NCBI GenBank assembly: GCA_965215265.1
Contig: OZ244048.1
Coordinates: forward strand, 1,056,001 to 1,120,000
DNA: 64,000 nt
Source: Candidatus Poribacteria bacterium
GTDB taxonomy: Bacteria > Poribacteria > WGA-4E > WGA-3G
Direction of reading: 5' to 3'
Shown here in pieces: positions 27,382 through 62,794 of the stretch. Position 1 is the stretch's first letter. Each line of letters starts with the position of its first letter. The notes beneath the pieces are model-generated. The model was not told where the DNA came from and searched no databases. It saw only the letters and a program-made list of their open reading frames with translations. Both the position numbers and the translations under genes were made by a program.

Positions 27382-27602
27382 TTTTTATATATCTCCGTAC
27401 CATCTTTTTGTATATCTTGGTACCATCACCGCTTATGTCTTGTTTCATCGTGTGTAAATCTCGTCGGAGGTTAGCTAGGTAATGTCTTTAAAATCGTAGA
27501 CATAAACGGCTCCGACGAGATTTTCACAGGTTTTTATATAGCAGCAGCCTTTATTGGGCTCCTGTAGACAAAAGACCTTTATTGGGCTCCTGTATATGAA
27601 AA
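27382..27602. repeat. Family A palindromic doublet element (full unit ~27405-27574) with duplicated ends
   Basis: Outer TTTTTGTATA...TAGACAAAA; inner inverted repeat AAATCTCGTCGGAG/CTCCGACGAGATTT. Confidence 0.85.
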
Positions 27603-28511
27603 ATCTTTGAGTTTACGCGGATCTTTTCGCCAATCGGCTTTGACAGTGACATAAAGTTGCAAAAAAACATGGGTATCCAAAAATTTTTCAATATCGGACC
27701 GGGCGAGTTCCCCGACACGTTTAATCACCCTGCCGGCTTTTCCGATGATAATTTGCTTTTGCGTCTGTCGTTCGACATAGACAATAGCCCGGATATACAC
27801 AGTTGCATTCTCGCGCCTGGTGCATTGCTCAACAACAACAGCTGTCGCGTATGGAACTTCTCGCTGCGTGAGCAGCATAATTTTTTCTCGTACGGTCTCA
27901 GCGATGAAAAAACGTTCTGGTAAATCGCTGAGGTGTTCTTCTGGAAAATAGCGTGGCCCCGGCGGTAGTTGAATATGTACGTGCTCAAGGAGGCGAGGGA
28001 TACCGTCACCCGTACGCGCGGAAATGGGTATCATTTCCTTGAATGCAAATTTCTTGGCGTAACTTGCTATGATCGGGAGCAACGTCTCTTTTGAAATTAA
28101 ATCGACTTTGTTCATGGCCAAAATTGCAGGGTGCTTCGCGCTGCGTAGACGTGCTAACATCTGCTCTTCATCGGCAGCTTCTGGTCGGGCAACATCAATT
28201 ACGCAAAGGACTACATCGGCACCTGCTAAAGCACTATAAGCGGTTTTTACCATTTCACTTTGCAACCGGTAAGTTGGATGCATCAGCCCGGGGGTATCAA
28301 CAAAAATGATTTGGTAGGATTCTGTTGTAACAATTCCGCGTATCTGGTTCCGAGTTGTCTGCGGTTTTGGGGTGACAATCGCCAGTTTCTGCCCTAATAG
28401 CGCATTGAGGAGTGTTGATTTACCGACATTAGGTGCCCCGATGATGCTGACATAGCCGGATCTGAATTCTTTCGTATATTTAAGCACGTTACCACCTGAT
28501 GTTTTTAGCAT
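27579..28511 (-). CDS. era: GTPase Era
   Basis: GAPNVGKSTL, KPQTTR, DTPG, NKVD, KH domain IIIGKAG. Confidence 0.96.
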   Translation of the reverse strand: MLKTSGGNVLKYTKEFRSGYVSIIGAPNVGKSTLLNALLGQKLAIVTPKPQTTRNQIRGIVTTESYQIIFVDTPGLMHPTYRLQSEMVKTAYSALAGADVVLCVIDVARPEAADEEQMLARLRSAKHPAILAMNKVDLISKETLLPIIASYAKKFAFKEMIPISARTGDGIPRLLEHVHIQLPPGPRYFPEEHLSDLPERFFIAETVREKIMLLTQREVPYATAVVVEQCTRRENATVYIRAIVYVERQTQKQIIIGKAGRVIKRVGELARSDIEKFLDTHVFLQLYVTVKADWRKDPRKLKDFSYTGAQ

Positions 28512-28810
28512 TGCATTAATCGCCGCTTTATGCTGCGCTATGCCTAAGATATCTCCGACGATCTATAGATTGGCAGGATAAGGTAATCTTTGTCTCTCCT
28601 TTCAGGAGAGACAAGAATACCGAACCTGCCAAGATTTACACATGAGCCCTCAAAAGCATAGACGTGGACGGTACGGAGATATATAAAAAATTGTTGGGCT
28701 CCTGTAAGTGATTGAAGAATCATAACCTAGAACGGCTCAGACGAGATTTACACACGAGCTATCATTACATAGACGTTGATGGTACGGAGATATACGAAAA
28801 GACGAAAAAA
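28470..28810. repeat. Composite of family A arms with a family B hairpin inserted at 28562-28632
   Basis: Removing B restores CTCCGACGA|GATTT; 28734-28800 nearly identical to 59113-59179. Confidence 0.85.
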
Positions 28811-28812
28811 CA

Positions 28813-30765: not shown

Positions 30766-32293
30766 TCAAAACCTCCGTTTTGAAAGGTGCACACCGCTGT
30801 TGATAATCCCGTAATGTTTCGATCGCTGTTTCTCCATGAAGCAGACTGGGTTGGTACTTTTTCTGGGGTGTTTCTGTTAAAATTGGAATCAATTCAATGA
30901 ATCTCAGCTGCCGATTAGCATAAGTAGCTTTGGGTATAACGATTTGAGCGTACTGTTTAGAATACGTATCATATATAAAATCAGCGAGACTGTAGATAAT
31001 CGGTTTGCCCTGATAAAGTTCGATGCCACCGAAGTGATGAAGTTGTTGACAGACAACCATATCGGCACCTGTATCAATGAGGGCGTGCGCAAATAGCTGC
31101 TGACGGCGAATCGCCTGTTCTCTGGCCTGATTTCTAAAGTCGCTTTTCTCAACTAGAGCGTCAGCGTGTTGTGCTTGTTGGTGCCGTTGCCGTTCTGGCG
31201 GATTCACTTGACGCCCCGTCCCACCCCAGTGTAGCAACACGATGACAAGTTTCGCTTTGTCCCGTACGTCCGTGACGGCTTCCATCATTTCGCTATAAAC
31301 CGCATCCGCAAGTAGTTCTGCCTTGTGCTGCGAGAATTCGTTTTGTCGATAATAGGCGAGTACGGCAACTTTTTGTATACTGGAACCCATCAACGCCTGA
31401 TGTGTTTCGTCTATCTCGGTACCATCATCGCGTTTGTTTTGATGACTCGTGTGTCCAGCTCGTCGGAGGTTTCTGATGTTTTGATTCATACTCCGGCGCA
31501 CCGTTTCAATATTGGATGGCACGCGTGGGACCGGTATCCATGCGGGCATCCGTGCCTCTGTGGTAGTTGTACCGGCACCAACCGGCTTGACATTATACCT
31601 TTTAAGTTCTGTGAGTGTATCTGCTAACGCTTCAAAACCGAAGTCCATACTGTGCGGGGTAGCTAAGGAGACGGCATCAAAACCTGCGTTTGCGAGTGCC
31701 CTTGCGAGTCCCAATGATGCGCGGAAGGTGTGTTCATGTCCGTACCGTGGCTCTCCTCGTTCTGAAATGCTTGTGTTGAGAAAGGCAACGGCGATATCTG
31801 CAGACTGAATCGACTCAGCGGTGCCTTTAAAAAAGATACCTGCTCCATTTATTTCTATCAGTGGTGTGAGACGGTTCCCGACAGTAATATCGCCAACAGC
31901 GAGGACGGTGAGTGTCTCAGCACCGGTGGTGCTTTGAGGCTGAAGTGCAACGTACGGCTGCTTTGGTTTCGCGTTCAAACCATCTAAGGAACCAGAGATA
32001 TCTTGGCTTGAGACGTTCAGGATGATGCACAGGCATGCGCAAATTTGGAACGCGACGAAAAATACGTTTTTGTATCTCTCCGTACCATCAACGCTTATGT
32101 CGTGAGTACTCGTGTGTAAATCTCGTCGGAGGTTATCGATGCTATGAATCATAGCATCGGAAGGCTCTGGCGAGATTTGTGCTTCGTTGTTCATTACATC
32201 TGTTGTGTTGTGCTCCTGTAGACGAAAAAACGAGATTTGTGCTTCGTTGTTCATTACATCAATCTGTGTTGTGCTCCTGTAGACGAAAATCAT
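30731..32293 (-). CDS. CapA-family (PGA_cap) metallophosphatase-fold protein; start uncertain because the N-terminus is repeat-derived
   Basis: LAVGDI, AGFDAVSLA, MDFG, LHWG, GIELYQGKPIIYSL; several metal-binding motifs degenerate. Confidence 0.75.
   Translation of the reverse strand: MIFVYRSTTQIDVMNNEAQISFFRLQEHNTTDVMNNEAQISPEPSDAMIHSIDNLRRDLHTSTHDISVDGTERYKNVFFVAFQICACLCIILNVSSQDISGSLDGLNAKPKQPYVALQPQSTTGAETLTVLAVGDITVGNRLTPLIEINGAGIFFKGTAESIQSADIAVAFLNTSISERGEPRYGHEHTFRASLGLARALANAGFDAVSLATPHSMDFGFEALADTLTELKRYNVKPVGAGTTTTEARMPAWIPVPRVPSNIETVRRSMNQNIRNLRRAGHTSHQNKRDDGTEIDETHQALMGSSIQKVAVLAYYRQNEFSQHKAELLADAVYSEMMEAVTDVRDKAKLVIVLLHWGGTGRQVNPPERQRHQQAQHADALVEKSDFRNQAREQAIRRQQLFAHALIDTGADMVVCQQLHHFGGIELYQGKPIIYSLADFIYDTYSKQYAQIVIPKATYANRQLRFIELIPILTETPQKKYQPSLLHGETAIETLRDYQQRCAPFKTEVLIEKERGWIHPK
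32067..32289. repeat. Family A element with tandemly duplicated right arm, overlapping the CapA 5' end
   Basis: AGATTTGTGCTTCGTTGTTCATTACATC...CTCCTGTAGACGAAAA occurs twice. Confidence 0.85.
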
Positions 32294-32296
32294 CGC

Positions 32297-32908: not shown

Positions 32909-33134
32909 TTTTCGTATATCTCCGTACCATCAACATTTATGTGTTGATGATTGGTTTGTAAACCTCGTGGCAGGTTCGGTATTCTTTGTCTGTCCATGAG
33001 ACAAGATAACCTTATACCTGCCATCTATAGATCGGAGGTTATCTATGTTTAGAGTCTATACATAAACGGCTCTGACGAAATTTGTAAAGGACTTAACATT
33101 ACAACCGCCTCTGTTGTGCTGCAGTAGACGAAAA
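32909..33134. repeat. Family A element with family B inserted at 32968-33031
   Basis: Removing B restores AAACCTCG|TCGGAGG. Confidence 0.85.
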
Positions 33135-34099: not shown

Positions 34100-34252
34100 C
34101 GGACGTAGCCCTGAGTGATAACCTCGCAGACACCATCGTTCGTAACGATAACTCTGCGGAGACGGTATTGTCCCGGCATTGGTTAAATACGGATTGGTTA
34201 GTATTTTTCTCCCCCTCCTCCACTTTGCTATAACTGTGCAGATTAACAGTTT

Positions 34253-34477
34253 TTTGTTTACTGCAGCACAACAAATGCCGCTGCTTTTTCGTATATTTCA
34301 GCCCGATAACGCTCTATGTTGTGTCAATGACTGTGTAAATCTTGTCGGAGATTTTCTAGGTTTTGACGGTTTAGACTAAAAGCTTCAAATGAGTTACCAG
34401 AAGATAAAGCGGTTCTGGCGAAATTTGTATAAGCGTTATCAAAGCAGCAGCCTTCATGGTACTTCAATGGACAAAAA
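34253..34477. repeat. Diverged family A element
   Basis: TTTTCGTATATTTCAGCCC...TGTGTAAATCTTGTCGGAG...GCAGCAGCCTT...GGACAAAAA. Confidence 0.7.
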
Positions 34478-36113: not shown

Positions 36114-36385
36114 TACCGAACCTGCCATTCTCCTTTCAGGAGAGACAAGAATACCTTTTACCTGCCACCCACTGGGATAAGATTACCTTTTACCTGCCAC
36201 CTATAGGTTCTTTGTCTGTCCTTCAGGACAGACAAGATTATCTATAGATTGGCAGGATAAGGTTGAGAGATAGGTAGTTCACGAAAAAGAGAGGTTTCGT
36301 AAACTTACCTTTTACTCGCAACCCACTGGGTGTTGATGGTACGGAGAGATATAAAAATTTGATTTTAAAAGACTATACCTAAGGA
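36114..36385. repeat. Nested cluster of B-type hairpins and A fragments between convergent fumC and rpoC
   Basis: Multiple CCTGCCA ends followed by CCCACTGGG or CCTATAGG; TCTATAGATTGGCAGG; GTTGATGGTACGGAGAGATATAAAAA. Confidence 0.8.
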
Positions 36386-39300
36386 GTCTCCTCAGTGTCT
36401 GTAGATTCCAATTCTGATTGGCGTGGGGCGACATGCAGGTTCTGAAATTCGGAGAAGCCGCTGCCTGCGGGGATGAGTCTGCCGAGGATGACGTTTTCTT
36501 TCAATCCGAAGAGCGGGTCAGTTTGTCCGCTGACGGCTGCGTCGGTTAATACTTTTGTGGTTTGTTGGAATGAGGCGGCGGAGATGAAGCTTTCAGTGCT
36601 TAAGGCGGCTTTGCTGATACCTTGTAGGATGGGCTCGCCGGTTGCGGGTGTGCCGTTGTTTGCAGTGATGTCGGCGTTGACGCGATGGAATCGGTTGCGC
36701 TGGATCTCGTCATTGGTATGGAAAGGGGTGTCGCCGGGTTCAGTGATGCGTATTTTTGTGAGCATCTGCCTGACGATTGTTTCGATGTGTTTGTCATTGA
36801 TAATGCCTGCGCCATATACCTTTTGTACCTCATCGACGAGGTATGCTGAGACGGCTTCTTCTCCTTCAAGGGGTATGCCTTGGATGAGGGTTCGCCCGAT
36901 TTTAAGGATGTCGTGTGGGTTTCGGTATCCGTCTGTGAGCGGTTGCCCCGCGTTAACCCAGTCGCCTTCTGCAACGCGCCGTTTTTCGTCAGGGATTGGA
37001 TATGTGCGGCTTTCGTACCCGTCGTGGACGATGCGGTAGAGAGGAATGCCGGCTTTTGTTCCGACGGATTGGATGTATCCTTCAATTTCTGCGATGTCGG
37101 CAGCATCTTCGCGTTTTGGCCGGCGTGCTTCAAAGAGATCGGTAACGCGGGGGATTCCTGCAACGATGTCTCGGTTGACTGTTTTTTCATGGCGTTGTGC
37201 GATGGTGCTGCCTTCACGGATGGTGTCGCCTTCTTTGACGGAGAAGGAGTATCCTGCAGGTATGAGGTGTGGTTCGCGATGTCCGGTTGTGGTTTCGACT
37301 TCAATATGCATGCGTGCTGCGAGTTCGTCTGTATCGAATCCTGCATATTGTGCGATGGCATCTTGGTATGCGTCTTCCGACAATTCTGTGCCGACTTTGT
37401 GCGGGAAGCTGGGGTGGTGGACGCGGGTGACGGTGTAGTTCATTTGCTGAATCTGCTTTTGAATGGCGCGATACGCTTTTTCCTCTATTTCCTCTAAGAA
37501 GTTCTCCCCGCCCTGCGGGGTGAATTCCTTAACATCAGCGCTGCTGCTTTGATTCGATTCGCCCGCCCACCCAAATCCTTCCTCTGGAGTACGGGTGTCG
37601 GAAACGATGCGGTAGACGTTCTCGACATCAAAGGCTTTGTATTGGCGTTGAAGCTTCCGATATTCGTTTTCGGAGAGTTCGGTATCAACCGCAAGGTTGA
37701 GCTGGGGGTGCTGTACGCTGAGAACGCGGTATCGGGATGCTTTTATCTTCTGCTTGAGTTCTGGGTCGTTTTTTCGCTGTGCCTTATATTCGGCCTCTGT
37801 GAGTGCGTCGCCGTCTTCCATCTGATAGGTGCGTTGGACATCAAAGGCTTTGTATTGTCTGCGATAGGCGTTTGTTTCTTTTGGTGTCAATAACTCACCG
37901 GGTTGCAGGGGGAAGTCGGGGTGATGGACGGCTATGATGCGTGAGAAGCGTTCGGTTTCGATGGTACCGGTGTTGAGTTGCTTCTCTGTGGCTTCAAAGG
38001 CGGGGTATTGACGTCGTGCGTCACGGAATTCTCCGTCGCTGAGTAGGGTTCCGGGTTCGAGTGGACAGTCGGGATGATAGACGTAGGTGATGCGGTGGCG
38101 TAATTTGGGTGCATCAACTCCGGGGTATCGTCTGTGTGCGGATTTGAGTTCAGCTGGGGTTAAGATGTCGCCGACGTTGAGGGGGCAATCTGGATGATGC
38201 ACCTGGGTGACTTCGTGGAGGACGGTGTCGTTTTTCTTAACTTGAAAGGGCTGATGAGTCAGCCGTGCTGTCTCGTATTGTGCTTCGGTGAGGGTTTCGC
38301 CGGGGTGTAGTGGGGCATCTACGTTGACGACGTAGCTGGGCCTGGTATCCAGGTCAAAAGGGGTGAGCCAGGTGCGGATGTCTTCTTCTTCTACGTTGTG
38401 GTTAACGGCGAAGGGGAAGTTTTGCTGATGGCGGGCTGTGATGCGGTATAGCCGCTTAAAATTCCTATTTTTTTCGTATATTTCCCCACCATCAACGTCT
38501 CTGTTTTGCTGGCTTCGGAACCCTTCGATGTTTTCGTCGCCCGCCCACCCAAATCCTTCCTCTGGGGTGAGCTGTTGGGGGGTTAGGAGTTGGCCTGTTT
38601 GATTATCAAGGTAGCGCCATTCGCCTTCAAAGTGGGCATGGATGTTGGCTTTTATTTGTTCGGCCTCGGTTTGTGTCAAGAAGTCACCAACGGCGACGGG
38701 GATATCTGGATGTCGGACGGCTGTTACTTTGTATTGCTGGGTGACATAGATATTAAAGCCGTATTGGCTGCGTGCTGTGTCATACTGTGCTTGCGAAAGC
38801 CGGTCACCGGGACGAAGTGGACAGGTTGGGTCGTTGACGGTGGCGACTTCGTATTGCCAAGTGTTTGTCTCAAAGCCTTTATACCGTTCTACGTTTTCGG
38901 AGAACTGTTTTTCGCTGAGGAGTTCTTGGGGCTGGAGTTGGCAATCTGGATGGTTGACGTGTTTGACTTTGTATGCGGGTCCGTCGAGGTCAGCGCGGTT
39001 TTCGAGTGCGACCCAGAGTTCTCCTTCTTGTCGGACGGTGCTGCCGGGCAAGAAGTCTCGGAAATGAATGGTTCCGTTGACTTTTGCGTGAATTTGGCGT
39101 TGGGGTGCGTCGGATGCTTGTTCGACGGCACCGCCGGTGTGGAAAGTGCGCATGGTGAGCTGGGTGCCGGGTTCGCCAATGGATTGTGCGGCAATGATGC
39201 CGATGGCTTCTCCGACATCTGCGAGTTGTCCTGTGGTTAAGTCCGTGCCGTAGCATTTTGCACAGACACCCCGTTCGGTTTGGCAGGTAAGGACGGACCG

Positions 39301-42105
39301 GACTTTGACGACTTGTATGCCGGCCTGCTCGATTTTTGTGGCAGCGGTGGCGGAGATAAGGGTATCTGCGGGGACTAAGATGTCGCCTGTATGGGGGTGG
39401 ACAATGTCTTCGGCTGCGGTGCGTCCCTGAATTTTGAATGCGAGGGTTCCGCCGTCGGTTTTAAATTTATGGATGGATGCGAGCGTCTTGCAATCTTCGG
39501 CGCGAATGCGAACATCTTGGGCGACATCAACGAGTTTACGTGTGAGGTAGCCGGATGCAGCGGTTTTCATGGCGGTATCTACTAATCCTTTCCGGGAGCC
39601 GTAGGTTGAGTTGAAATAGTCGAGTACATCTAATCCTTCGCGGTAGGAACTTTTAATCGGTTCACTGAGGATTTCGCCGCTTTGGCGGGCTTTCAATCCG
39701 ACCAGGGCACTAATTTGCATGAAGGGGTTTTTGCGTGCACGTGCACCGCTGTCTGCCATGACATAGACTGGAGAAAATCCTTTGACGGCTTCTTGTCGTT
39801 CGATGAGATAGGTTTCGAGGTCAGGGAGCGTCTCAAAAAGGGTTGCTTCAAGTTTCTCAATGGCTTCAAACCATAGGCGAATTCGCTCGTTTTCCAGGTG
39901 CTCGGTGTTGGCAGTAGGTGCGGTGTTTATGAGGGTGTCGACTGCGGCTTGTGCTTCGTTGACCAGGGTGTCGCGGTTGGGCGGTAGGATGTAATCCTTG
40001 ATTGCGGGTGAGATTCCGCTGAGTGTAGCGTACTCAAAGGCGAGTTTCTGGAGGTTGCTGAGCACTTCGGTTGTCGACTGCGTTCCCAATTCGTGGAAAC
40101 AGCGATGTATGAGTGTCGATAATTCGCGTCCGCCTGCTTCCGCATTGAAGAATGGGATGCGTTGTCCGGAATGCGGGTCGGTCCATTCCAGTTCATCTGG
40201 GATGACTTGGTTCAAAATGACTCTGCCGACGGTAGTGAGAATCGGCTTTTCGTATAGTTCAGTACCGTCAGTGCTTCGGTTGTGGGTGAAGAAGAGTTGT
40301 ATGCTATCGTGAAGTTTCAATTGTCCAGCTGTGTATGCGGCGATGACCTCGTCTGGATGGGTGTAGCGGCGATAGTACCAGGGCCGGTTGCTGAGTTCGT
40401 CAAACGTGCTGAGTTTTTCTCTATTTAGATAGGCAGCATGGAGCTGTCCTGCGTCGCCATCATGGGATGGCAAGGCTTTGGTGAGAAAACTGGGGCCGAG
40501 GACCATGTCGAGTTCAGGTACTGCGATGGGTTCTCCGTGAGAGGGCTTTAAGATGTTATGAGAACTGAGCATGAGCAATTTGGCTTCTGCTTGTGCTTCG
40601 GCAGTGAGGGGTACGTGAACGGCCATCTGGTCTCCATCAAAATCGGCGTTAAAGGCTTTGCAGACGAGGGGGGGGATGCGTATAGATTTCCCTTCTACTA
40701 ATACAGGCATAAATGCCTGGATGCCGAGCCGATGTAAGGTCGGTGGACGATTGAGTAAGACAGGATGCTCTGCGATAACTTCTTCAAGTACATCCCAGAC
40801 GGGGCTTTCGGAATGTATATGTTCGGTCAAGAATTTGGCACGTTTCATGGTGCCGGTGTAGCCGTATGCTTGTAGGCGCTCGATAATAAACGGTTTGAAG
40901 AGTTCGACGGCCATGCGTTTTGGGAGTCCACACTGGTGGAGTGCGAGTTCTGGTCCGACGACGATAACACTCCGCCCGGAGTAGTCAACGCGTTTGCCGA
41001 GGAGGTTCTGACGGAAACGTCCGACTTTTCCTTTTAGAATGTCTGATATGGATTTGAGGGGGCGGCTGCCGGGTCCGGTGACGTATCTACCGTGTCGTCC
41101 ATTGTCAAGATATGCGTCGACGGCTTCTTGTAGCATGCGTTTCTCATTGCGTAAGATGACCTTTGGTGACCGGATGAGTATTAATTTGCGTAGCCGGTTA
41201 TTGCGGTTGATGAGTCGGCGGTATAAATCGTTTAAGTCGCTGGTGGCGAATCTGCCGCCATCTAATGTGACAAGTGGGCGCAGGTCTGGTGGGATGACGG
41301 GGAGTACGTCCAAGATCATCCACTCTGGGCGCTGGTTAGATTCGATAAAGCCTGCAAGCTGCTTGAGTTGTTTAGAGAGTTTCAAGCCTTTTTGATGGCT
41401 GGTGGTTTCTTCTAAAGCTTTGCGAATTTTTTTCTGCTCTTCTTCCAAATCGATGTCTGAAAGGAGCTTCTTTATCACTTCTCCCCCGGCTTCGGCTTTG
41501 AAACGCCCAGGGTATTGCTGTTTTGCTTGTTCGTATTGTGCCTCGTTTAAGACTTGATGGGGTTCAAGTATGCCTTGCTGTGCTAGTTCGTCGTCGACTT
41601 CTGTGACGATGAAGGCCTCGAAGTAGATAACGCGTTCAACTTCCTTTGAAGAGAGTTGACAGAAGGTTCCGATACGTGAGGGGATGCCTTTGAAAAACCA
41701 GATGTGGGAAACGGGGGATGCGAGCTGGATATAACCCATCCGTTCGCGTCGGACATGCTGTTTTGTGACTTCAACGCCGCATCGATCGCAAATAACGCCT
41801 TTGTGCTTAATGCGTTTATACTTTCCGCAGTTACATTCCCAATCTTTATGGGGCCCAAAAATGGCTTCGCAAAAGAGCCCTTCTGGCTCGGGTCGGAAGC
41901 TACGGTAGTTAATGGTTTCTGCTTTTTTGACTTCGCCGCAGCTGCAGGTGTGCATTTCTGGGCAGGACCAGGTTTGCGGGTCCGGCGGTTCGTTTTGCTG
42001 ATGGGCACCTGTTTGCAAGGTGCTCCGACGTTTGCAACAGGTGCGTTTCACGAGTCTTTTTATTTCGTCTGCGGAAGAGAGTCTAATCGAAATCTTATCA
42101 AACAT
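36379..42105 (-). CDS. rpoC: RNA polymerase beta-prime subunit with ~650-aa trigger-loop insertion
   Basis: GLFCEAIFGP, NADFDGDQMAV, GEPGTQLTMRTFH, GLKENVILGRLIPAG; likely start MFDKI at 42105. Confidence 0.97.
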   Translation of the reverse strand: MFDKISIRLSSADEIKRLVKRTCCKRRSTLQTGAHQQNEPPDPQTWSCPEMHTCSCGEVKKAETINYRSFRPEPEGLFCEAIFGPHKDWECNCGKYKRIKHKGVICDRCGVEVTKQHVRRERMGYIQLASPVSHIWFFKGIPSRIGTFCQLSSKEVERVIYFEAFIVTEVDDELAQQGILEPHQVLNEAQYEQAKQQYPGRFKAEAGGEVIKKLLSDIDLEEEQKKIRKALEETTSHQKGLKLSKQLKQLAGFIESNQRPEWMILDVLPVIPPDLRPLVTLDGGRFATSDLNDLYRRLINRNNRLRKLILIRSPKVILRNEKRMLQEAVDAYLDNGRHGRYVTGPGSRPLKSISDILKGKVGRFRQNLLGKRVDYSGRSVIVVGPELALHQCGLPKRMAVELFKPFIIERLQAYGYTGTMKRAKFLTEHIHSESPVWDVLEEVIAEHPVLLNRPPTLHRLGIQAFMPVLVEGKSIRIPPLVCKAFNADFDGDQMAVHVPLTAEAQAEAKLLMLSSHNILKPSHGEPIAVPELDMVLGPSFLTKALPSHDGDAGQLHAAYLNREKLSTFDELSNRPWYYRRYTHPDEVIAAYTAGQLKLHDSIQLFFTHNRSTDGTELYEKPILTTVGRVILNQVIPDELEWTDPHSGQRIPFFNAEAGGRELSTLIHRCFHELGTQSTTEVLSNLQKLAFEYATLSGISPAIKDYILPPNRDTLVNEAQAAVDTLINTAPTANTEHLENERIRLWFEAIEKLEATLFETLPDLETYLIERQEAVKGFSPVYVMADSGARARKNPFMQISALVGLKARQSGEILSEPIKSSYREGLDVLDYFNSTYGSRKGLVDTAMKTAASGYLTRKLVDVAQDVRIRAEDCKTLASIHKFKTDGGTLAFKIQGRTAAEDIVHPHTGDILVPADTLISATAATKIEQAGIQVVKVRSVLTCQTERGVCAKCYGTDLTTGQLADVGEAIGIIAAQSIGEPGTQLTMRTFHTGGAVEQASDAPQRQIHAKVNGTIHFRDFLPGSTVRQEGELWVALENRADLDGPAYKVKHVNHPDCQLQPQELLSEKQFSENVERYKGFETNTWQYEVATVNDPTCPLRPGDRLSQAQYDTARSQYGFNIYVTQQYKVTAVRHPDIPVAVGDFLTQTEAEQIKANIHAHFEGEWRYLDNQTGQLLTPQQLTPEEGFGWAGDENIEGFRSQQNRDVDGGEIYEKNRNFKRLYRITARHQQNFPFAVNHNVEEEDIRTWLTPFDLDTRPSYVVNVDAPLHPGETLTEAQYETARLTHQPFQVKKNDTVLHEVTQVHHPDCPLNVGDILTPAELKSAHRRYPGVDAPKLRHRITYVYHPDCPLEPGTLLSDGEFRDARRQYPAFEATEKQLNTGTIETERFSRIIAVHHPDFPLQPGELLTPKETNAYRRQYKAFDVQRTYQMEDGDALTEAEYKAQRKNDPELKQKIKASRYRVLSVQHPQLNLAVDTELSENEYRKLQRQYKAFDVENVYRIVSDTRTPEEGFGWAGESNQSSSADVKEFTPQGGENFLEEIEEKAYRAIQKQIQQMNYTVTRVHHPSFPHKVGTELSEDAYQDAIAQYAGFDTDELAARMHIEVETTTGHREPHLIPAGYSFSVKEGDTIREGSTIAQRHEKTVNRDIVAGIPRVTDLFEARRPKREDAADIAEIEGYIQSVGTKAGIPLYRIVHDGYESRTYPIPDEKRRVAEGDWVNAGQPLTDGYRNPHDILKIGRTLIQGIPLEGEEAVSAYLVDEVQKVYGAGIINDKHIETIVRQMLTKIRITEPGDTPFHTNDEIQRNRFHRVNADITANNGTPATGEPILQGISKAALSTESFISAASFQQTTKVLTDAAVSGQTDPLFGLKENVILGRLIPAGSGFSEFQNLHVAPRQSELESTDTEETP

Positions 42106-42655
42106 TTTTATATATCTCCGTACCATCAAAGGTTATGTTGTGTGAAATCCGATGTAGATCTCGTCGGAGCCACTCTAGGTATAGCCTTTAAAATCATAAC
42201 ATCAAACGGCTCAGACGAGATTTGTAAAGTTATTAATATAGCAGCAGCCTTGTTACGGGCTCCTGTAGACAAAAGATCTCCGTACCATCAAAGGTTATGT
42301 TGTGTGAAATCCGATGTAAATCTCGTCGGAGCCACTCTAGGTATAGCCTTTAAAATCATAACATCAAACGGCTCAGATGAGATTTGTAAAGTTATTAATA
42401 TAGCAGTGGCAGGATAGGTATTCTTTTTCACTCCTGCAAGGAGTGAAAAAGAATACCTATCCCTCAACCTTTTACTCGCCACCCATTGGGATAACCTTAT
42501 ACCTGCCATCTATAGATCGGAGGTTAACTAGGTATAGTCTTTAAAATCTAAACATAAACGGCTCAGACGAGATTTTCACAGGTTTTTATATAGCAGCAGC
42601 TTTTATTGGGCTCCTGTAGACAAAAGACCTTTATTGGGCTGAAATATACGAAAAA
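42105..42655. repeat. Tandem family A copies plus a B-type insert filling the rpoB-rpoC spacer
   Basis: ~42115-42245 repeated almost exactly at ~42276-42406; B-type block 42407-42516; partial third A. Confidence 0.9.
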
Positions 42656-45600
42656 TCGTCTTCAGTAGACGAATTAAGGACGACGTTGAGGCCGAGTCCT
42701 TGAAGTTCTCGGACAAGGACGTTAAAGGATTCGGGGGTTCCGGCGGGCTCGGGATTGAGTCCTTTAACAATGGCTTCATACATTTTGGCTCTGCCAAAAA
42801 GGTCGTCGGATTTGAGGGTGAGCATTTCTTGTAGGGTATAGGCTGCGCCGTATGCCTCTAATGCCCAGACCTCCATTTCACCTAAGCGCTGCCCCCCATG
42901 CTGGGCTTTGCCGCCTAACGGTTGTTGGGTGACTAGGGAGTAAGGTCCTGTTGCTCGGGCGTGCATTTTATCTGCGACGAGGTGATTGAGTTTTAAGAAG
43001 TAGACGTAGCCGACTGTGACTTCTTGTGCGAAGGGTTCACCGCTCCTTCCGTCGTAAAGGATGCTTTTGCCGGTGCGTTTGCTCCGTTCTGGTAAGTCGG
43101 TTTTGTGAAGGAGCTGAAAGATTTCATTTTCGGTGGCACCGTCAAAGACGGGTGACTCTGCGTAGATGCCGAGTTCGTGGCAAGCCCAGCCGAGATGAAT
43201 CTCCAAAATTTGTCCTACATTCATACGGGATGGCACGCCGAGTGGATTGAGGACGATGTCGACGGGGGTTCCATCGGGGAGGTAGGGCATATCCTCGACG
43301 GGCAATATGTTGGCCACAACGCCTTTGTTCCCATATCTGCCGGACATTTTATCGCCGACGGAAATCGGACGTTTGCTTGCGACATAGACTTTGACGAGTT
43401 TTACGACTCCTGGTTTGAGTTCGTCGCCTAATTCTAATTGATTAAGTGCACGTTCCCTATCTGCCTGGTAGGCGGCGATGCGTTCACTGGCGACTTCGGA
43501 GACGCGTTGGATGTATGCCATGGCGGCTGAATCTGTGACATAGATTTCTAAGGGGTTGATGCCGGGGGTGTTGAGGAGTTCTTCGGTTACCGTATCACCG
43601 GTGTCTCCAAGGGGTGCATGTTCTTCTTCAAAGTTTTCGTCTATTTCGTCTATCTCTATATCGTCAATTCCGGGGAAGACGGGCAATGCTAATGTGCAGC
43701 CGAGGAGGGCACGTCGGATTTCTTCATCTTTACGCCGTTGAACGGCTAATCTCTGCTCGCGAAATGTCTCTTCGATCTGCTTGAGTTTGGACTGGTATCT
43801 TAATTCGTCCACATCGACGGGTGCGCTGGCAACGGCATCGTCGGGGCTGACTGATGAGGGCACGGTGGTGCGTCTTTTGATGTTCTCCATTTTACGTGAG
43901 AAGACTTTGACATCGATGACGACACCTTCAAGTCCTGTTTTGATGGTGGTGGAGGTGTCGCGTACTTCGCGGTTGGCTTTTTCGCCGAAGATCACGTGCA
44001 GCAGTTTCTCTTCCGGCCCGTATTGGCTTTCTCCTTTTGGGGTGATTTTGCCGACGAGAATACTGCCGGGTCCGACAACGCTGCCGACACGGACGATGCC
44101 TTCTTCATCTAGCTGGGCGAGTCGCTGTTTTTTGACATCCGGGATATCGCGTGTTATTTCTTCGGGGCCCATTTTTGTGTCACGGGCCTCGACGATAAAT
44201 TCTTCAATATGGATCGAGGTGAAGGTGTCTTTGCGAATTAAGCTTTCGCTAATGAGAATGGAGTCTTCGTAGTTGTGTCCGCCCCAGGGCATGTAGGCAC
44301 ACAAGATGTTCCGTCCTAGTGCAAGCTCGCCGTGGTGTGTCGAGGGTCCGTCGGCAAGGATGTCGCCGGTGGAGACCCGGTCTCCGACAGAGACGACGGG
44401 ATGTTGATGGAAACACGTGCCGCTGTTACTCCGTTTGAATTTGTGGAGCTTGTAGACATCGTATCCCATTTCGCTTTTCTGTGTTTCTCCGATGTCTGCA
44501 TGGAGTGCTTCGCCTGTACGGATAATGATGTCATCGGCGGAGACGCTGACGACCGTGCCTTCTCGCTTTGCGATGCAGAGCGCACCGGAGTCACGTGCAG
44601 CGTGGATTTCCATGCCGGTGCCGACGAGGGGTGCCTCTGGACATAGCAGGGGTACCGCTTGGCGTTGATGGTTTGCGCCCATCAATGCGCGGTTGGCATC
44701 TTCATGTTCTAGGAATGGAACGAGTGCTGCGGAGACACCGACTATCTGTTCGGGGGCGATGCCGATATAATCAATCTCTGGGAGTGGGAGGTTGAAGACA
44801 TCTTCGCCTTTGCGCACCGGCAGCTTTTCGTCTTTTTCGTCTATGTCCGTAATTTGGTTGCCCTTGGTGCCCCGGGGTGCGATTTTTGCTGCGATTTTCA
44901 TGGTGGCTTCTTTGCCCGCGGTGAGGTATTCGATCGTGGGATGCGGTTTGCCATTAACAACTTTCCGATAAGGGGTTTCTAAGAAGCCGTATGGGTTGAC
45001 TCTCGCATAGCAGGCCAGTGAGGCGATAAGTCCTATTGAGGGTCCTTCTGGGGTTTCTAATGGGCACACGCGTCCGTAATGGGTATGATGTACGTCTCGA
45101 ACAGCGGCGGTTGCGCGGTCGCGTTGTAATCCACCGGGGCCGATCGCGGAGATACGTCGCTTGTGCGTCAATTCGTCAAGAGGGTTTATCTGTTGCATAA
45201 ACTGCGAGAGTTGGTTTGAGCCGAAGAATTCGCGTAGGGCTATCATCAGTGGCTTCGGGTTTATCAGTGCTGTCGGCACACAGGTGCGCATATCCACGGT
45301 GTTCAGTCGCTCCCGTGTGGCGCGTCGTATCTGTAAGAGTCCGATGCGGAATTGGTTTTCGAGAAGTTCGCCGATGACCCGGACGCGTCTATTGCCCAGA
45401 TGATCCAAGTCGTCTTTCGGTGCCTCTTCATTCTGGACATCTATCAAGTAATGGAGTGTTGCAGCGATGTCCTCTGGGCGGAGTGTGCGTTCATTTTCGC
45501 CGGGCTGTCCGTATATCGGGATGTGTGAGAGTTTTTCGTTGAGTTTATAGCGGCCGACCTGTCCTAAGTCATACCGATGAGGGTCGAAGAGGTGCCATTG

Positions 45601-47280
45601 TAGTTGCTTGTGTGCCTGCTCTACGTTTGGCGGGTCGCCTGGCCGGAGGACGGACTGGATTTCAAGCAATGCCGTTTCTTGCCTGCTCCGATTCGGTGGA
45701 TAGTCGGCGGCTTTGTCCCGTTCCAGGGTGTTGCGCAAGTAGCGGAGTTGTTTGGCCTTTTGTGGGTTGAGCACGGTTATCGCTTCAATGCCGGCACTTC
45801 GCAGGCGTTCGAGTTCTGTCTCAGTGAGGAGAGTGTTGGCTGTGAGCAGGGTTTCCCCCGTTTCAGGGTGTTTTATGGGTGCTGCACAGACGCTTCCGAC
45901 GATTTGGCTATTTTCGTCTATCTTGGTACCGTCAACGCTGAGGTTTTCTCTGTTTTGGATACCAGGCTGCGCGAGTTTTTCTGCAGAAAAGCTGCTGGGG
46001 TACTGGGCGTTCATGTGGGCGTATTCTGTGTCGGTGAGGAGCTGGCCGGGTTTTAACGGGCATCCGCTGTTGATGATTGCGAGGACGCGGTGTAAAGGTT
46101 GACTGGTCCAGTGTTTCGACTTTCTGCGGAACTTGGTGCGTTCTGCGGGGGTGAGTATTTGTCCAACCTTCAATGGTATGTCGTCGTCGACGGTTGTGAC
46201 TTGATAGCAGGACTCTGTTTGAATGCCGGGGTAGCAGTTGCGCAGCTGCCGGTAGTCCTTATTTGGTATGAAATCCCCGGTGGCGTGGGGGAAGTCGGGA
46301 TGAAATACGGCTGTAACCTGCCGGATGTGTTCGAAGGTCGTCCCTTTCCATTTCCGACGATGTGCGGCTTGTTGACGTGGGGTGAGTATGTCGCCTGGCT
46401 TTACGGGTGTATCAGCCGCGCTGACATCTACTACTTTGTATAGGACATCGGTGGTAAAGCCGGGGTAATCATTTTTAGCGTTTTTATGTTCGGATTTTGA
46501 GAGGAGTTGTCCGGGGCTGTATGGGCATGGTGCGGCGGTGATGTGTGTGACGCGCCAGCCGGATAAGACGGCTTGCTCGGGTTGTGCGAAGAGTTGTAGT
46601 ATATCTGCATCGGTTTCCCATCCGAGCGCGCGAAGTAGGACAGTTGCAGGCATTTTTCTGCGTTTGTTGAGTCGGACATATACCTGGTCTTTTGCGTCTG
46701 ACTCAAATTCAACCCAGGCACCGCGGTAGGGGATAATCTGCGCGGTCGGGGTATTCTGTCCTGAAGTCATGGCTTTTTCAAGAAAAATTACGCCGGGTGA
46801 CCGGTGAAGTTGGTTGACGATAACGCGTTCACTGCCATTGATAATAAAGGTCGCGGTTTCTGTCATCAATGGGACATCGCCAAAATAGACATCCGATTCT
46901 CGGATATCCACGATGTGGGGTTCATCGCTGTCGGCATCCTTCTCACAAACGAACAACCGGAGACGGGCAGTGAGGGAGACCTGGTAATTGACACCGCGTG
47001 CAACACAATCCTCTAAAGCATATTTCGGCTGCCCAAGACGGTACGAGACAAATTCAAGCCGACTGATGTTATGATAGTCCAAAATCGGAAAGATTTCCTG
47101 AAAAACGGCTTGAAGTCCAATAGCATCTCGTACTTCAGGCGCGATATCGCGCTGTAAGAAGTCGGTGTAAGAACTTTGTTGCGTCTCTATCAAATTCGGA
47201 AGGGGGGGCCGCTCCTCTGTTTTGGCAAAAGAGAGTCTTTTTCGTCTGTTCACTTGTGTTGTGCTCCCGTTGCGGTGCAA
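42631..47280 (-). CDS. rpoB: RNA polymerase beta subunit with repeat-module insertion
   Basis: FIINGSERV, GRVCPLETPEG, GDKMSGRYGNKG, GQRLGEMEVWAL. Confidence 0.97.
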   Translation of the reverse strand: MHRNGSTTQVNRRKRLSFAKTEERPPLPNLIETQQSSYTDFLQRDIAPEVRDAIGLQAVFQEIFPILDYHNISRLEFVSYRLGQPKYALEDCVARGVNYQVSLTARLRLFVCEKDADSDEPHIVDIRESDVYFGDVPLMTETATFIINGSERVIVNQLHRSPGVIFLEKAMTSGQNTPTAQIIPYRGAWVEFESDAKDQVYVRLNKRRKMPATVLLRALGWETDADILQLFAQPEQAVLSGWRVTHITAAPCPYSPGQLLSKSEHKNAKNDYPGFTTDVLYKVVDVSAADTPVKPGDILTPRQQAAHRRKWKGTTFEHIRQVTAVFHPDFPHATGDFIPNKDYRQLRNCYPGIQTESCYQVTTVDDDIPLKVGQILTPAERTKFRRKSKHWTSQPLHRVLAIINSGCPLKPGQLLTDTEYAHMNAQYPSSFSAEKLAQPGIQNRENLSVDGTKIDENSQIVGSVCAAPIKHPETGETLLTANTLLTETELERLRSAGIEAITVLNPQKAKQLRYLRNTLERDKAADYPPNRSRQETALLEIQSVLRPGDPPNVEQAHKQLQWHLFDPHRYDLGQVGRYKLNEKLSHIPIYGQPGENERTLRPEDIAATLHYLIDVQNEEAPKDDLDHLGNRRVRVIGELLENQFRIGLLQIRRATRERLNTVDMRTCVPTALINPKPLMIALREFFGSNQLSQFMQQINPLDELTHKRRISAIGPGGLQRDRATAAVRDVHHTHYGRVCPLETPEGPSIGLIASLACYARVNPYGFLETPYRKVVNGKPHPTIEYLTAGKEATMKIAAKIAPRGTKGNQITDIDEKDEKLPVRKGEDVFNLPLPEIDYIGIAPEQIVGVSAALVPFLEHEDANRALMGANHQRQAVPLLCPEAPLVGTGMEIHAARDSGALCIAKREGTVVSVSADDIIIRTGEALHADIGETQKSEMGYDVYKLHKFKRSNSGTCFHQHPVVSVGDRVSTGDILADGPSTHHGELALGRNILCAYMPWGGHNYEDSILISESLIRKDTFTSIHIEEFIVEARDTKMGPEEITRDIPDVKKQRLAQLDEEGIVRVGSVVGPGSILVGKITPKGESQYGPEEKLLHVIFGEKANREVRDTSTTIKTGLEGVVIDVKVFSRKMENIKRRTTVPSSVSPDDAVASAPVDVDELRYQSKLKQIEETFREQRLAVQRRKDEEIRRALLGCTLALPVFPGIDDIEIDEIDENFEEEHAPLGDTGDTVTEELLNTPGINPLEIYVTDSAAMAYIQRVSEVASERIAAYQADRERALNQLELGDELKPGVVKLVKVYVASKRPISVGDKMSGRYGNKGVVANILPVEDMPYLPDGTPVDIVLNPLGVPSRMNVGQILEIHLGWACHELGIYAESPVFDGATENEIFQLLHKTDLPERSKRTGKSILYDGRSGEPFAQEVTVGYVYFLKLNHLVADKMHARATGPYSLVTQQPLGGKAQHGGQRLGEMEVWALEAYGAAYTLQEMLTLKSDDLFGRAKMYEAIVKGLNPEPAGTPESFNVLVRELQGLGLNVVLNSSTEDDFSYISAQ

Positions 47281-47288
47281 CGATTTGT

Positions 47289-47734
47289 CTTTCGTCTACT
47301 GCAGCCCGTTAAAGGCTGTCTATAGATTGGCAGGATAAGGTAATCTTATCTCTCCTTGCAGGAGAGATAAAGAATACCGAACCTGCCAACTGCAATGTTA
47401 AATCCTTTACAAATCTCGTCAGAGGTTTTCTATGCTATGCTTCTAAACAGAGATAACCTCCGATCTATAGATGGCAGATAAAAGATAGTAAAGCGTGTCC
47501 TGAAGGATACGACTTTCTACCTATCCTGCCACTGTCCTAGAGGAGAGATAAAGAGTCCGAAGTTGAGGGTAAAAGGTAAGTTTACGAAACCTTGCAGGTG
47601 GGGAAGTTCTCCCTGCAAGCGGGGATGAATCCCCATCGCAAACTACCTATCCCTCAACCTATCCTGCCACTGGCGCGATTTGTAGCGATTTTAGAAAAAC
47701 ATAAGGCGTTGATGTGCTGAAATATACGAAAAAA
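47289..47734. repeat. Family A element carrying several nested B-type and C inserts, in the rpoB leader
   Basis: B at 47319-47389 splits AAGGCTG|CTGCAATG (intact at 62539-62553); second insert after CTCCGA at 47464. Confidence 0.85.
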
Positions 47735-56663: not shown

Positions 56664-56668
56664 TTTTG

Positions 56669-56739
56669 TTGGCAGGTTCGGTATTCTTTGTCTCTCCTAC
56701 AAGGAGAGACAAGATTCCCTTATCCTGCCAATCTATAGA
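56669..56739. repeat. Stand-alone family B hairpin element
   Basis: TTGGCAGG...TTGTCTCTCCT-ACA-AGGAGAGACAA...CCTGCCAA-TCTATAGA. Confidence 0.85.
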
Positions 56740-56829
56740 TCGGTGGGGAATGCACGCATGGCATTCCATCAGCATGACTGTATCTATCTCACCTGAGACA
56801 CTGGAATATGATGCTTAGGAGATATAGGG

Positions 56830-57312: not shown

Positions 57313-57313
57313 G

Positions 57314-58819: not shown

Positions 58820-58822
58820 CGC

Positions 58823-59179
58823 TTTTTCGTCAACGGTATACAATATGTGCTTTATACGAAAAAAAAAAGACTATACCTAAGTAATCTCCGATCTATAGAT
58901 AAAAGGTAATCTTGTCTCTCCTGAAGGACAGACAAAGAAGGATTCGGGTGGGCGGGAGCCATACAGAACCTGCCAAGATTTTCACAGTAATTGACACAAC
59001 ATAAGGCGTTATCGGGCTAAAATATACGAAAAAATATGAATCTCGCCTGACCTTACCGGAGATGGGTACAGAATGTTTAAGGAGGGTTATATTTAGAGTC
59101 AATACATCGAAGGGCTCAGACGAGATTTACACACGAGCTATCATTACATAGACGTTGATGGTACGGAGATATACAAAAA
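58823..59179. repeat. Composite A elements with B and the D motif (GGATTCGGGTGGGCGGG) nested
   Basis: CTCCGA-TCTATAGAT...CCTGCCAA-GATTTTCACAG; arms ending ATATACGAAAA and ATATACAAAAA. Confidence 0.8.
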
Positions 59180-59200
59180 CACGTTTCCACCGACTAAACC

Positions 59201-60973: not shown

Positions 60974-61018
60974 TTGCTATAGGCGGCCCCATGGTACTTT
61001 GGCACTTTCCTATACACG

Positions 61019-61588: not shown

Positions 61589-61719
61589 GGTTAAAAACCT
61601 CCAAATTGTTTTCATTGAGGGTATACCGTCTTTTTTCTCGTGTGAATTTTGTGGTATACCTCGTATCTACTTAGCGTAAACAGAAACTTGACTCTTAACT
61701 AGCGGGAAACTTCATCACT

Positions 61720-62511
61720 TCAGTAGCCAACAAATTGCAAATATCTCTGCCAGAGCGTATCTCCCCATAAAAAGACAATGACTGCGGCACATGCAAGAAA
61801 GGGTCCATAAGGAATAGGACTTTGGCGGTTCTTTCGTCCGAAAATAATAAGACTTGTTCCAACGAGGGCCCCTCCTATTGCAGAGAGGGCGATAACCATC
61901 GGAAGCTCGGGCCATGCACCGAGAAATAAGCCGTTAAGTCCCATTAACTTAATATCACCGCCGCCCATTGCCTTCTTGCGTAAAATCGCGCTGCCAATTA
62001 TCGCAATTAACCACATTACCACACTGCCTGCCACGGCTCCTATGAGCCGGACTAACATGTACCCTATATCGCCACGTTGATACGCAATGAGCGCAACGAT
62101 GACAAGCCCAATTCCCATGCCAAAGGCAATGAGAATATCCGGGATAATATAGTGTTGTGCATCAATAACCGCAATCGGCAGTAGTAAGGCGACAAAAAAG
62201 GCCCCGTGTAAAAAATTAAACGTCAGTCCGTTAAAATGATAGAACAGACCGAGAAATAGCAGGGCTGTTGCCAGTTCGACTGCCGGGTACATCACTGAAA
62301 TGTTCGCTTTGCAATTACGACATTTTCCACGCAATAGCAAGTAACTCAGAAAAGGGATGTTGTCAATAACGTTTATAGGTTGACGACATTTAGGACAAAA
62401 GGAGCTACGCGGCGAATGTATTGACAAGTCGGCATGCGGAATACGATAGATACAGACATTGAGAAAACTCCCAATTATTAGACCTAAGATAAAAATAAAG
62501 AGTTGTATCAC
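61720..62511 (-). CDS. pilD: Prepilin peptidase/N-methyltransferase (A24)
   Basis: GSFLNVCIYRIP, CPKC/CRNC, ID...IIPD, MGGGDIKL, IPYGPFL. Confidence 0.93.
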   Translation of the reverse strand: MIQLFIFILGLIIGSFLNVCIYRIPHADLSIHSPRSSFCPKCRQPINVIDNIPFLSYLLLRGKCRNCKANISVMYPAVELATALLFLGLFYHFNGLTFNFLHGAFFVALLLPIAVIDAQHYIIPDILIAFGMGIGLVIVALIAYQRGDIGYMLVRLIGAVAGSVVMWLIAIIGSAILRKKAMGGGDIKLMGLNGLFLGAWPELPMVIALSAIGGALVGTSLIIFGRKNRQSPIPYGPFLACAAVIVFLWGDTLWQRYLQFVGY

Positions 62512-62514
62512 GAT

Positions 62515-62794
62515 CTTTCGTCTACAGGCACCCGTAACAAGGCTGCTGCAATGTTAAAACCTGTGAAAATCTCGTCTGAGCCGTCTGGTGCTTTGATTTT
62601 TAAAGACATTACCTAAGTAGTCTCCGACGAGATTTATCTATAGATTGGCAGGTAAAAGGGAAGGGAAGTTCTCTCCGCTCACGGGGAGGAATCCCCTTTC
62701 TTGTCTCTCCTTGCAGGAGAGACAAAGAATACCTATCCTGCCAACACACGAGTATTCATGACATAAGCGTTGACGGTACGGAGATATACAAAAA
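62515..62794. repeat. Family A element containing B (62637-62744), which contains C (~62663-62696)
   Basis: Removing B restores GAGATTTA|CACACGAG. Confidence 0.88.

Follow-up and report, generated by a model that had tools for sequence, protein, structure and literature searches.

The bacterial interspersed mosaic elements (BIMEs) and clusters of repetitive extragenic palindromes (REPs) of enterobacteria are mosaic intergenic arrays of a few motif types in alternating orientation, and their REPs go with RAYT genes. Mycobacterial interspersed repetitive units (MIRUs) are simple tandem units without foldback, and the BOX element has the structure boxA-boxB(n)-boxC. In the portions of PMC10969869 available to us, the BOX, RUP and SPRITE elements of Streptococcus pneumoniae are described as inserting into one another, and Chunjie, a miniature inverted-repeat transposable element (MITE) of Geobacter uraniireducens, sits in an operon and has the terminal inverted repeats and direct repeats typical of MITEs. 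According to the same portions, Rickettsia palindromic elements (RPEs) are palindromes of ∼100–150 bp that lie in frame in unrelated housekeeping genes and are read through as protein, one frame being favoured (PMC10969869). CGTC-tagged REPs are high-copy stem-loops with CGTC at the foot of the stem and units of 20–40 nt (Di Nocera, De Gregorio and Rocco 2013, PMC3733652). The available part of that paper defines both GTAG- and CGTC-tagged REPs, states that RPEs end in CGTC, and places tagged REPs inside replication and repair genes and within longer palindromes, where they can supply stop codons. Here, we describe a nested family of palindromic repeats in a 64-kb stretch of DNA (the window, position 1 being its first letter), which corresponds to positions 1056001–1120000 of the single-contig, 4,833,177-bp genome (G000) of a sponge symbiont of the phylum Poribacteria. 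With a probability of about 0.6, we consider these repeats to be lineage-restricted, non-autonomous REP-like selfish elements of Poribacteria, the closest described kind being the CGTC-tagged REPs, RPEs included.

According to this interpretation, the spreading unit would be an arm of ∼60 nt with an outer end TTTTYGT.. and an inner end ..AATCTCGT(CGGAG). One or several arms stack head to tail on each side of a short core hairpin (CGGAG-loop-CTCCG), giving foldbacks of ∼165 bp that contain smaller palindromes (B, C and others). Insertion of the arms may have occurred without duplication, through a trans-acting activity able to recognise the conserved termini or hairpins, and this activity would be either unrecognised or already lost from G000. 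Selection would then retain only the harmless copies. The traits of the arm would suit this: one open frame, a left-arm end with GGAG and an A-rich leader able to serve the next gene, and stops in the inward reading. Such a selective filter would explain the pile-up of arms at gene borders and in variable protein linkers.

The arms were counted over the whole genome with an iterated nhmmer profile of the first arm type (A1), which gave 481 and then 648 matches in 4.83 Mb. The other modules were also profiled, and the matches were merged into loci. This yielded 916 arm loci, 714 of which are at least 55 nt long, belonging to the types A1 (396), A2 (311) and A3 (209), together with 210 B palindromes, 39 C palindromes, 31 E modules and 106 core hairpins. 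Jointly, these families occupy 72,459 bases, i.e. 1.5% of the genome, and further modules exist besides those profiled. The 12-mer ATCTCGTCNGAG is present in 363 copies against 0 for its reversed control, which together with the 648 A1 matches indicates an abundance far beyond chance. An earlier note, made from the letters of the window, had located arms at nine places (27405, 28470, 32067, 32909, 34285, 42105 in tandem, 47289, 58823 and 62515). All nine carry the described arms, the eighth at 58823/59115, and the arm ends (TTTTYGTMTA ... AAATCTCGTCKGAG) and the centre of ∼40 nt had been quoted correctly. The first profile match, at position 22015, also agrees with its remark that none was noticed in 1–21 kb. 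We found three arm types instead of the two described there, as well as copies that had been overlooked in the uvrA frame (22.0–27.4 kb), in a PGA_cap gene (31.4 kb), in rpoC (37.56 and 38.47 kb) and in rpoB (45.9 kb), and a solo B element at 56.67 kb.

Convergent arm pairs, counted within 600 bp, numbered 201 and had a modal length of 160–170 bp; 118 were A1/A2, 44 A2/A3, 22 A1/A3 and 17 homotypic. Pairing is therefore not free, 184 of the 201 pairs being heterotypic, and this dominance indicates that the left arm of an element is A1 or A3 and its right arm A2. The outer ends TTTTYGTMTA, inverted in all these pairs, are terminal inverted repeats. Neighbouring arms in the same orientation are nearly as common as convergent ones (151 '++' and 145 '--'). 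They form stacks of two to four arms, often unequal on the two sides (3+2, 3+2 and 2+4), in which the head-to-tail junction reads ..AAATCTCGT|TTTTTCGT.. and the core CGGAG-hairpin-CTCCG follows the innermost pair alone. The tandem periods include 61 nt (41 cases), 60 nt (23) and 62 nt (13), and 54 of 172 are multiples of three. Across 76 heterotypic elements, the identities of left and right arms are uncorrelated (Mantel r −0.009, reached by 538 of 1000 permutations), and the best partner of the left arm is within the top five of the right arm in 11 of 76 cases against ∼5 by chance. Of 81 pairs of neighbours, 14 reach 95% identity or more, compared with 7 of 776 random same-type pairs; some stacks thus grew by local duplication, and most did not. 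Truncated copies kept the outer end in 94 cases and lost it in 28. Stacking, the uncorrelated arms and the retention of the outer end together indicate that the ∼60-nt arm, and not the 165-bp foldback taken as the unit of family A in the earlier note, behaves as the unit.

The smaller palindromes are layered onto the arms. Of the 210 B loci, 105 are no more than 120 nt from an A arm, whereas only 15.8% of the bases outside long open frames are this close, and B interrupts arms at three different positions in the window. C is found in or beside B at 13 of 39 loci, and 8 of those share an identical junction, which shows that a B+C composite spreads as one piece. A CRISPR origin of module C was rejected, its 39 copies being dispersed and lacking array spacing. 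As judged from the flanking arm motif, 34 of the 93 full A elements occupy the dyad of another A element, with one of its arms on each side. The idea of a layered selfish set in which each family lands in another thus holds for the nesting itself and for B near A arms, but not for the B+C composite, which spreads as a unit. Single elements and the 563-nt rpoB–rpoC mosaic fold more strongly than shuffled controls (z −5.6, −7.6 and −5.8). The core CGTCGGAG..CTCCGACG fits the definition of a REP as a short imperfect palindrome with a tetranucleotide tag, and inverted dimers dominate, but the arms, at 60–65 nt, are only partly self-complementary.

No target-site duplication (TSD) was detected in 59 non-nested full elements, the distribution of best flank repeats being equal to that of shuffled flanks. 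The median nearest-neighbour identity of the arms is 93%. An identity of 95% or more is shared by 620 pairs, 560 of which are separated by over 1 kb, and 466 of 585 arms have their nearest relative at a distance of more than 50 kb. These values suggest either that the arm has spread genome-wide and recently or that its copies are being homogenised. Among 13 candidate paralogous empty sites, we found no clean case for A and one clean insertion of B (3925599), perhaps accompanied by a 3-nt ACC repeat. Of the words sampled from 38000–47300, at least 84% are present in each of nine DNA runs, which come from five studies, and no RNA run is among those listed. Contigs from four other studies break at the elements, and those that span an in-gene arm (rpoC 38471–38564, uvrA 23116 and 24250) are identical to the window. 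A 67-nt 'skip' at 36237–36305, considered as a polymorphism, most likely reflects another copy in the genome, its sides being short (25 nt).

Two comparison genomes, a sister species of the same genus (G001) and a member of another genus (G004), carry the arm termini. The 12-mer is present 231 times in G004, 46 times in G001 and 0–9 times in 38 other relatives (reversed controls 0–5), and BLAST of a 561-nt mosaic found nothing in 29 of 30 relatives. The arms of G001 and G004 have TTTTYGT.. at one end and ..ATCTCGTCGGAG at the other and form tandem stacks with the G000-type junction, and their middles are unrelated to those of G000. Arms of both genomes, like A2, begin TTT-CGTC, and the tetranucleotides CGTC and GTAG occur at arm ends. 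A regular expression for the G004 arm matched 3 arms in 46 kb, and a strict two-end pattern, run against 185,579 species genomes, retrieved one Poribacteria record with three matches and one likely chance match. Only the termini are thus conserved across the three genomes, as a trans-acting recognition system would require. The cleanest evidence for a single arm as the insertion unit comes from G001, in which an IS605-like insertion sequence (IS; Y1 tnpA plus tnpB) is present in at least five copies. A 93-nt single arm with a tail is inserted in tnpB of four of five copies, introducing a stop codon, and the fifth copy is the exact empty site, without duplication.

The earlier note had treated the repeats as filler of intergenic spaces. 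They also extend across gene starts and stops, in a fixed register, and lie in frame in essential genes. An ATG that opens a frame of at least 100 codons stands exactly 1 nt past the outer end of A1 at 31 of 377 arms, and 62 A1/A3 arms have an ATG at −2 to +3. The genes concerned, rpoC among them, have quite different N-termini. In this position, the arm end ..GGTACGGAGATATACAAAAA puts GGAG at −16, while in 1637 arm-free genes the native GGAG is most frequent at −13 to −10. Gene ends are affected as well: 58 of 81 long frames that enter an arm from outside stop within it, e.g. those of era (..FSYTGAQ*) and rpoB (..DFSYISAQ*). Outermost A1/A3 ends face gene starts in 209 cases and gene ends in 99, the corresponding numbers for A2 being 68 and 97 (chi-square 30.3, p 3.6e-8). 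No promoter or terminator excess was seen in the elements of 27.2–34.6 kb (6 promoter-like sites against 11.3 expected, 10 terminator-like against 7.0).

Several borders in the window illustrate this register. The full element at 27405..27602 (A1 27405–27470, core hairpin 27466–27512, A2 27511–27573) is followed by a partial A2 in which era has its last codons and its stop, and a partial A3 (28468..28505, plus strand) encodes the first ∼14 codons of era, including the ATG. At 32909..33133 (A1, B at 32967–33034, core, A2), the A1 end abuts the ATG of a 203-aa open reading frame (ORF). Repeats make up the entire rpoB–rpoC spacer at 42105..42655, in the order A1, core, A2, truncated A1, core, B, core, A2 and partial A3; the rpoB stop lies inside the A3 arm, and the end of A1 adjoins the rpoC ATG. 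This spacer measures 99 nt and has an ordinary Shine-Dalgarno sequence in G001, and is 501 nt long, all repeats, in G000, whose rpoC is without three N-terminal codons present in G001 and G005.

Only 52 of 648 A1 matches are contained in full within an open frame of 200 codons or more, compared with 1414 of 2000 random 65-mers. Thirty-four of the 52 share one orientation and phase, reading ..LRRDLHTS..DGTEIYEK. Many of the 52 are false N-terminal extensions, and the true in-frame copies were confirmed by alignment with relatives. A comparison of filled and empty orthologous sites, as the earlier note had suggested, showed the sites to be empty in the sister species. In uvrA, whose double-length product is conserved in relatives (1901–2001 aa), an array of partial A3 (A3′), A1, A3, core and A2 (22389..22646) forms an insertion of ∼75 aa, and an A1 arm with module E (26434..26522, plus strand) forms an in-frame insertion of 36 aa. 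Both are specific to G000, being absent from G001, G002, G003 and G005, with clean empty sites in G001. A 33-aa N-terminal extension, also specific to G000, is made of an A1 arm, module E and a partial A1 (27283..27404, plus strand), with the ATG in module E. The same gene contains an A1 arm at 22015..22079 (plus strand; minus-strand reading ..LRRDLHTSHQNKRDDGTEIDEK..), a partial A1 (model positions 1–37) at 23116..23152 (plus strand) that takes the place of an equal-length linker, and a partial A1 at 24250..24289 (plus strand) in the linker joining the two UvrA halves.

Other core genes are affected in the same way. RpoC of G000 has a 13-aa insertion consisting of module E (37559..37587, plus strand; ..EEGFGWAGE..), found in G000 only and absent from G001, and rpoC also carries a partial A1 and module E in frame at 38471..38564 (plus strand). 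A candidate partial A1 lies in frame in rpoB (45911..45947, plus strand; profile match E 4.8e-4), and a partial A3 and an A1 arm are in frame within a PGA_cap-family gene (31370..31469, plus strand). Elsewhere in the genome, the GlyQS linker contains an arm and exceeds that of G001 by ∼20 aa, and the GcvP interdomain linker and an S8 peptidase each carry an arm by profile match. At 38.47 kb in RpoC and at UvrA sites 2, 3 and 5, arm-like patches substitute for equal-length linkers and add no length. We observed that G002 carries a different in-frame repeat (LHRDREVSPT.. units) in the same UvrA loop and that era of G001 has its own 25-aa insertion; on the basis of these alignments, in-frame repeat invasion looks general in this group of Poribacteria. 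A separate case was noted at G000:C1:4413272-4413510, where three tandem 87-nt units (arm plus an extra module) make up most of a 152-codon frame that reads (KRLNLNIRSLRRDL.TSHQSRS..GTEIYKR) three times and is probably a spurious, repeat-made ORF.

Both three-level nests reported in the earlier note are real. The element at 62516..62794 consists of A2, core and an A1 interrupted by B (62636–62744), which is itself interrupted by C (62658–62698). The element at 47290..47733 contains an A2 split by B (47318–47389), a core, a second B-type palindrome (47461–47554), C (47597–47636) and A3 (47670–47733, minus strand). At 28559..28800, B (28559–28632) is inserted in an A1 (28627–28689, minus strand) that is followed by a second A1 (28736–28800, minus strand). 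The element at 32067..32288 comprises A1, core, A2 and an extra solo A2, its A1 overlapping the N-terminal region of the PGA_cap ORF, and that at 34252..34476 comprises a partial A2, an A3 arm, core and A2. The space that separates fumC from the rpoC end (36129..36391) contains a cluster of B-type palindromes, a partial A1 (36330–36357, minus strand) and a core-like piece. A solo B palindrome lies directly 3′ of a gene end (56669..56742, minus strand), and a core piece, B (58889–58976), A3 (58970–59033, minus strand), core and A1 (59115–59179, minus strand) follow one another at 58866..59179. Apart from the palindromic families, rpoC (36379–42129, 1916 aa) and rpoB (42631–47280, 1549 aa) are very long and contain many copies of a ∼65-aa module (..VHHPDCPL..G..LT..EY...R..YP.F..) common to relatives, in a region of strong GC and AT skew. 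Two sets of coding tandem repeats are unrelated to the palindromes, namely 66-nt (22-aa) leucine-rich-repeat-like units at 17478–18977 and 36-nt units at 19670–20549, inside the ORF 18972–20333.

The search for a mobilising enzyme bore out the earlier statement that none is present in the window, and none of the tested families was found intact elsewhere in G000. There were 0 matches to Y1_Tnp (RAYT/IS200), DEDD_Tnp_IS110, the TnpB zinc ribbon, rve and DDE_Tnp_4, an absence that covers these named families alone, other IS families lying outside the search. What is left of DDE enzymes are four weak DDE_Tnp_1 fragments and four decayed DDE_3 (IS630) fragments. The sole tyrosine recombinase is broken by a stop codon, on which ground an integron-like reading was rejected, and the sole reverse transcriptase belongs to an ordinary diversity-generating retroelement (DGR; Avd plus reverse transcriptase) unrelated to the arms. 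This DGR (G000:C1:1419462-1420944) pairs an Avd gene (NF033474, 120 bits) with a 354-aa reverse transcriptase and has a neighbouring gene whose C-terminus resembles formylglycine-generating enzyme/GldK and multi-copy Rpn-like genes around. A two-ORF family of ∼2.4 kb (G000:C1:817424-819838 and about 9 other loci; ∼10 copies, 90–95% identity) was also considered as an IS and set aside: its N-terminal motif resembles a DNA methyltransferase, and its ORFs would form a putative DNA methyltransferase cassette.

It is very unlikely that the elements are classical MITEs, i.e. deletion derivatives of a DDE IS (e.g. IS630) that moved as whole 165-bp units and whose parent has since been lost. Their small size and conserved inverted ends, the four decayed DDE_3 fragments and the position of 34 of the 93 full elements at another's dyad would be in keeping with this, but no target duplication is present, left and right arms assort independently, and solo arms and unequal stacks are common. 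The IS630 lead failed on further grounds: IS630 is abundant in family-free relatives (G015 66, G037 41) and has 0 matches in G001 and G004, its inverted ends in four relatives are unlike the arm ends, and the G000 fragments are not beside arms, bar one ∼1 kb away. No parent IS with arm ends of the type TTTTYGTMTA..AATCTCGTCGGAG was found among the families searched, and the distances between inverted arms show no peak at IS length. A Y1 (HUH) transposase of the RAYT/IS200-IS605 type, acting on single-stranded hairpins, retained in the sister species and lost from G000, would account for the missing TSDs, for the hairpin-rich elements (fold z −5.6 to −7.6) and for CGTC/GTAG at the arm ends, and among 41 genomes Y1_Tnp matches are indeed most numerous in G001 (34), with 3 in G004. 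However, G000 has the most arms and yet 0 such matches, and many relatives have Y1 genes but not the family. The motif 154 nt from five Y1 genes of G001 proved to be the arm inserted in tnpB and no IS end, both ends of this IS605-like element, in which a PATE-type end match was sought, are unlike the arms, and the motif is absent within about 700 nt of the three Y1 loci of G004. We regard this explanation as quite unlikely.

A rather unlikely explanation dispenses with a dedicated enzyme and attributes the copies to host recombination or replication (hairpin template switching, microhomology-mediated templated insertion, gene conversion, slippage). The failure to find either a transposase or a TSD speaks for it, as do the same-length replacement patches in the RpoC and UvrA linkers, the microhomology between arm end and native G001 sequence at the junction of uvrA site 4, and the excess of near-identical adjacent arms (14 of 81 against 7 of 776). 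G000 also has ∼24 full-length paralogues of Rpn-like recombination-promoting PD-(D/E)XK nucleases (357–413 aa; 39 matches; two subfamilies ∼97% and ∼60% identical to the query), its only abundant transposase-like genes. Nevertheless, 466 of 585 arms have their nearest relative more than 50 kb off, the resemblance between most adjacent arms does not exceed that of random pairs, and truncated copies retain a precise outer boundary (94 against 28). The Rpn-like nuclease was rejected as mobiliser, given that no G000 copy is arm-flanked, that G001 has none and that the nuclease family is common in repeat-free genomes; G004, which carries the repeats, has 49 matches. Finally, the arms could be host-selected functional modules and not selfish DNA, namely intercistronic cassettes that end one gene, fold the mRNA and give the next gene a leader and a ribosome-binding site. 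Their polarity relative to genes (p 3.6e-8), the ATG at +1 at 31 arms, the donated stop codons and the strong folds are all consistent with such a role. We nevertheless hold it to be distinctly unlikely, as arms are absent from orthologous sites within the genus, where spacers are ordinary, copies lie inside coding regions, arm number differs between stacks, GGAG stands 3–6 nt further upstream than the native optimum, no promoter- or terminator-like excess is seen, and arm middles turn over quickly between genomes.

Several points weigh against our preferred reading of REP-like selfish repeats. Arms of 60 nt exceed the 20–40-nt stem-loops that define REPs, and the same-length replacement of linkers in RpoC and at UvrA sites 2, 3 and 5 is not predicted by simple insertion. 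The sharp register of ATG at +1 is more precise than selection alone would give, and GGAG at −16, outside the native peak, makes for a ribosome-binding site that is putative. The similarity of dispersed copies could stem from gene conversion instead of recent movement. No presence/absence polymorphism was seen in the contigs, which cannot show its absence, and no insertion was caught in progress. Moreover, gene calls were open frames without curated annotation, and the arm identities used in the nearest-neighbour and left/right comparisons were ungapped, which adds noise and blurs correlations. A bolder reading, which we consider rather improbable, takes the arm as a still-active, non-palindromic mobile unit of 60 nt, moved by an unrecognised activity that would read the two short termini only, insert without duplication, and prefer the inner ends of resident arms and the site exactly one base upstream of start codons. 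If true, the family would be a self-spreading intercistronic cassette (stop codon, hairpin, ribosome-binding leader), and the translation starts of at least 62 genes, including rpoC, would have been rewired in a genome without detectable transposase.

The Poribacteria family offers a tractable case for the spread of RAYT-less REP-like repeats, the CGTC-tagged group with the RPEs of Rickettsia included, with hundreds of fresh copies, exact filled and empty sites and a chromosome without the usual transposases, and the three genomes that share only arm termini point to what a mobilising activity must recognise. The family also shows the reach of such repeats into core genes (uvrA, rpoB, rpoC, glyQS and gcvP) and their takeover of the start and stop signals of neighbours. 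In practice, short-read assemblies of this symbiont break at every element. Starts will be misplaced by automatic gene callers, and the open frame of the arm may lead them to extend or fuse ORFs. The added points of interest are the arm as unit, the polarity and exact register at gene borders, the copies in core genes and the lack of a recognisable mobilising enzyme.

The earlier note had not recognised the repeats as a described family. This holds insofar as these non-coding, hairpin-forming, high-copy repeats have no match in plasmid and phage collections, Rfam at gathering thresholds gave 0 matches in the window, and a literature search retrieved no paper linking Poribacteria with 'miniature inverted-repeat'. 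The family was not found described, but its kind is already known (CGTC-tagged REPs, RPEs, BOX and BIMEs). Like BIMEs, it forms mosaic arrays that are likely folded in mRNA; unlike them, it has no RAYT, has longer arms and is also found inside genes. It resembles Chunjie and MIRUs in lying within operons without breaking them and in being compatible with flanking stop and start signals, whereas neither of these is reported, in the sources available to us, in frame inside essential genes at such a scale. With BOX it shares modularity, a variable number of tandem sub-units between partly complementary ends, and small families that insert into each other. In contrast to BOX, as far as the available text describes it, the arm itself is the tandem module and flanks the core on either side, no relation in sequence was seen, and the gene-border register and in-frame copies are features of the present family. 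In-frame copies in conserved genes, empty sites in relatives and the preference for one frame recall the RPEs as described in the accessible portions. The differences from RPEs are another phylum and sequence, a mostly intergenic location (∼8% in long open frames), modular arms, and in-frame copies that are here known from reading frames alone.

The closest parallel, within the available part of PMC3733652, is with the CGTC-tagged REPs. The units of the Poribacteria family are longer (60–65 nt), have a second conserved end (TTTTYGT..), stack in tandem and occur in a phylum not listed in that part. The likeness is one of description, by which the family fits the CGTC-tagged REPs in all tested respects but unit length and would be a candidate relative of CGTC-1 to CGTC-4 or RPE-1 to RPE-10. 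Both have CGTC at the foot of a stem (here ATCT-CGTC-GGAG..CTCC-GACG), head-to-head pairs and mosaics, copies within genes, including repair genes, for which they supply stop codons, and no dedicated transposase that is known.

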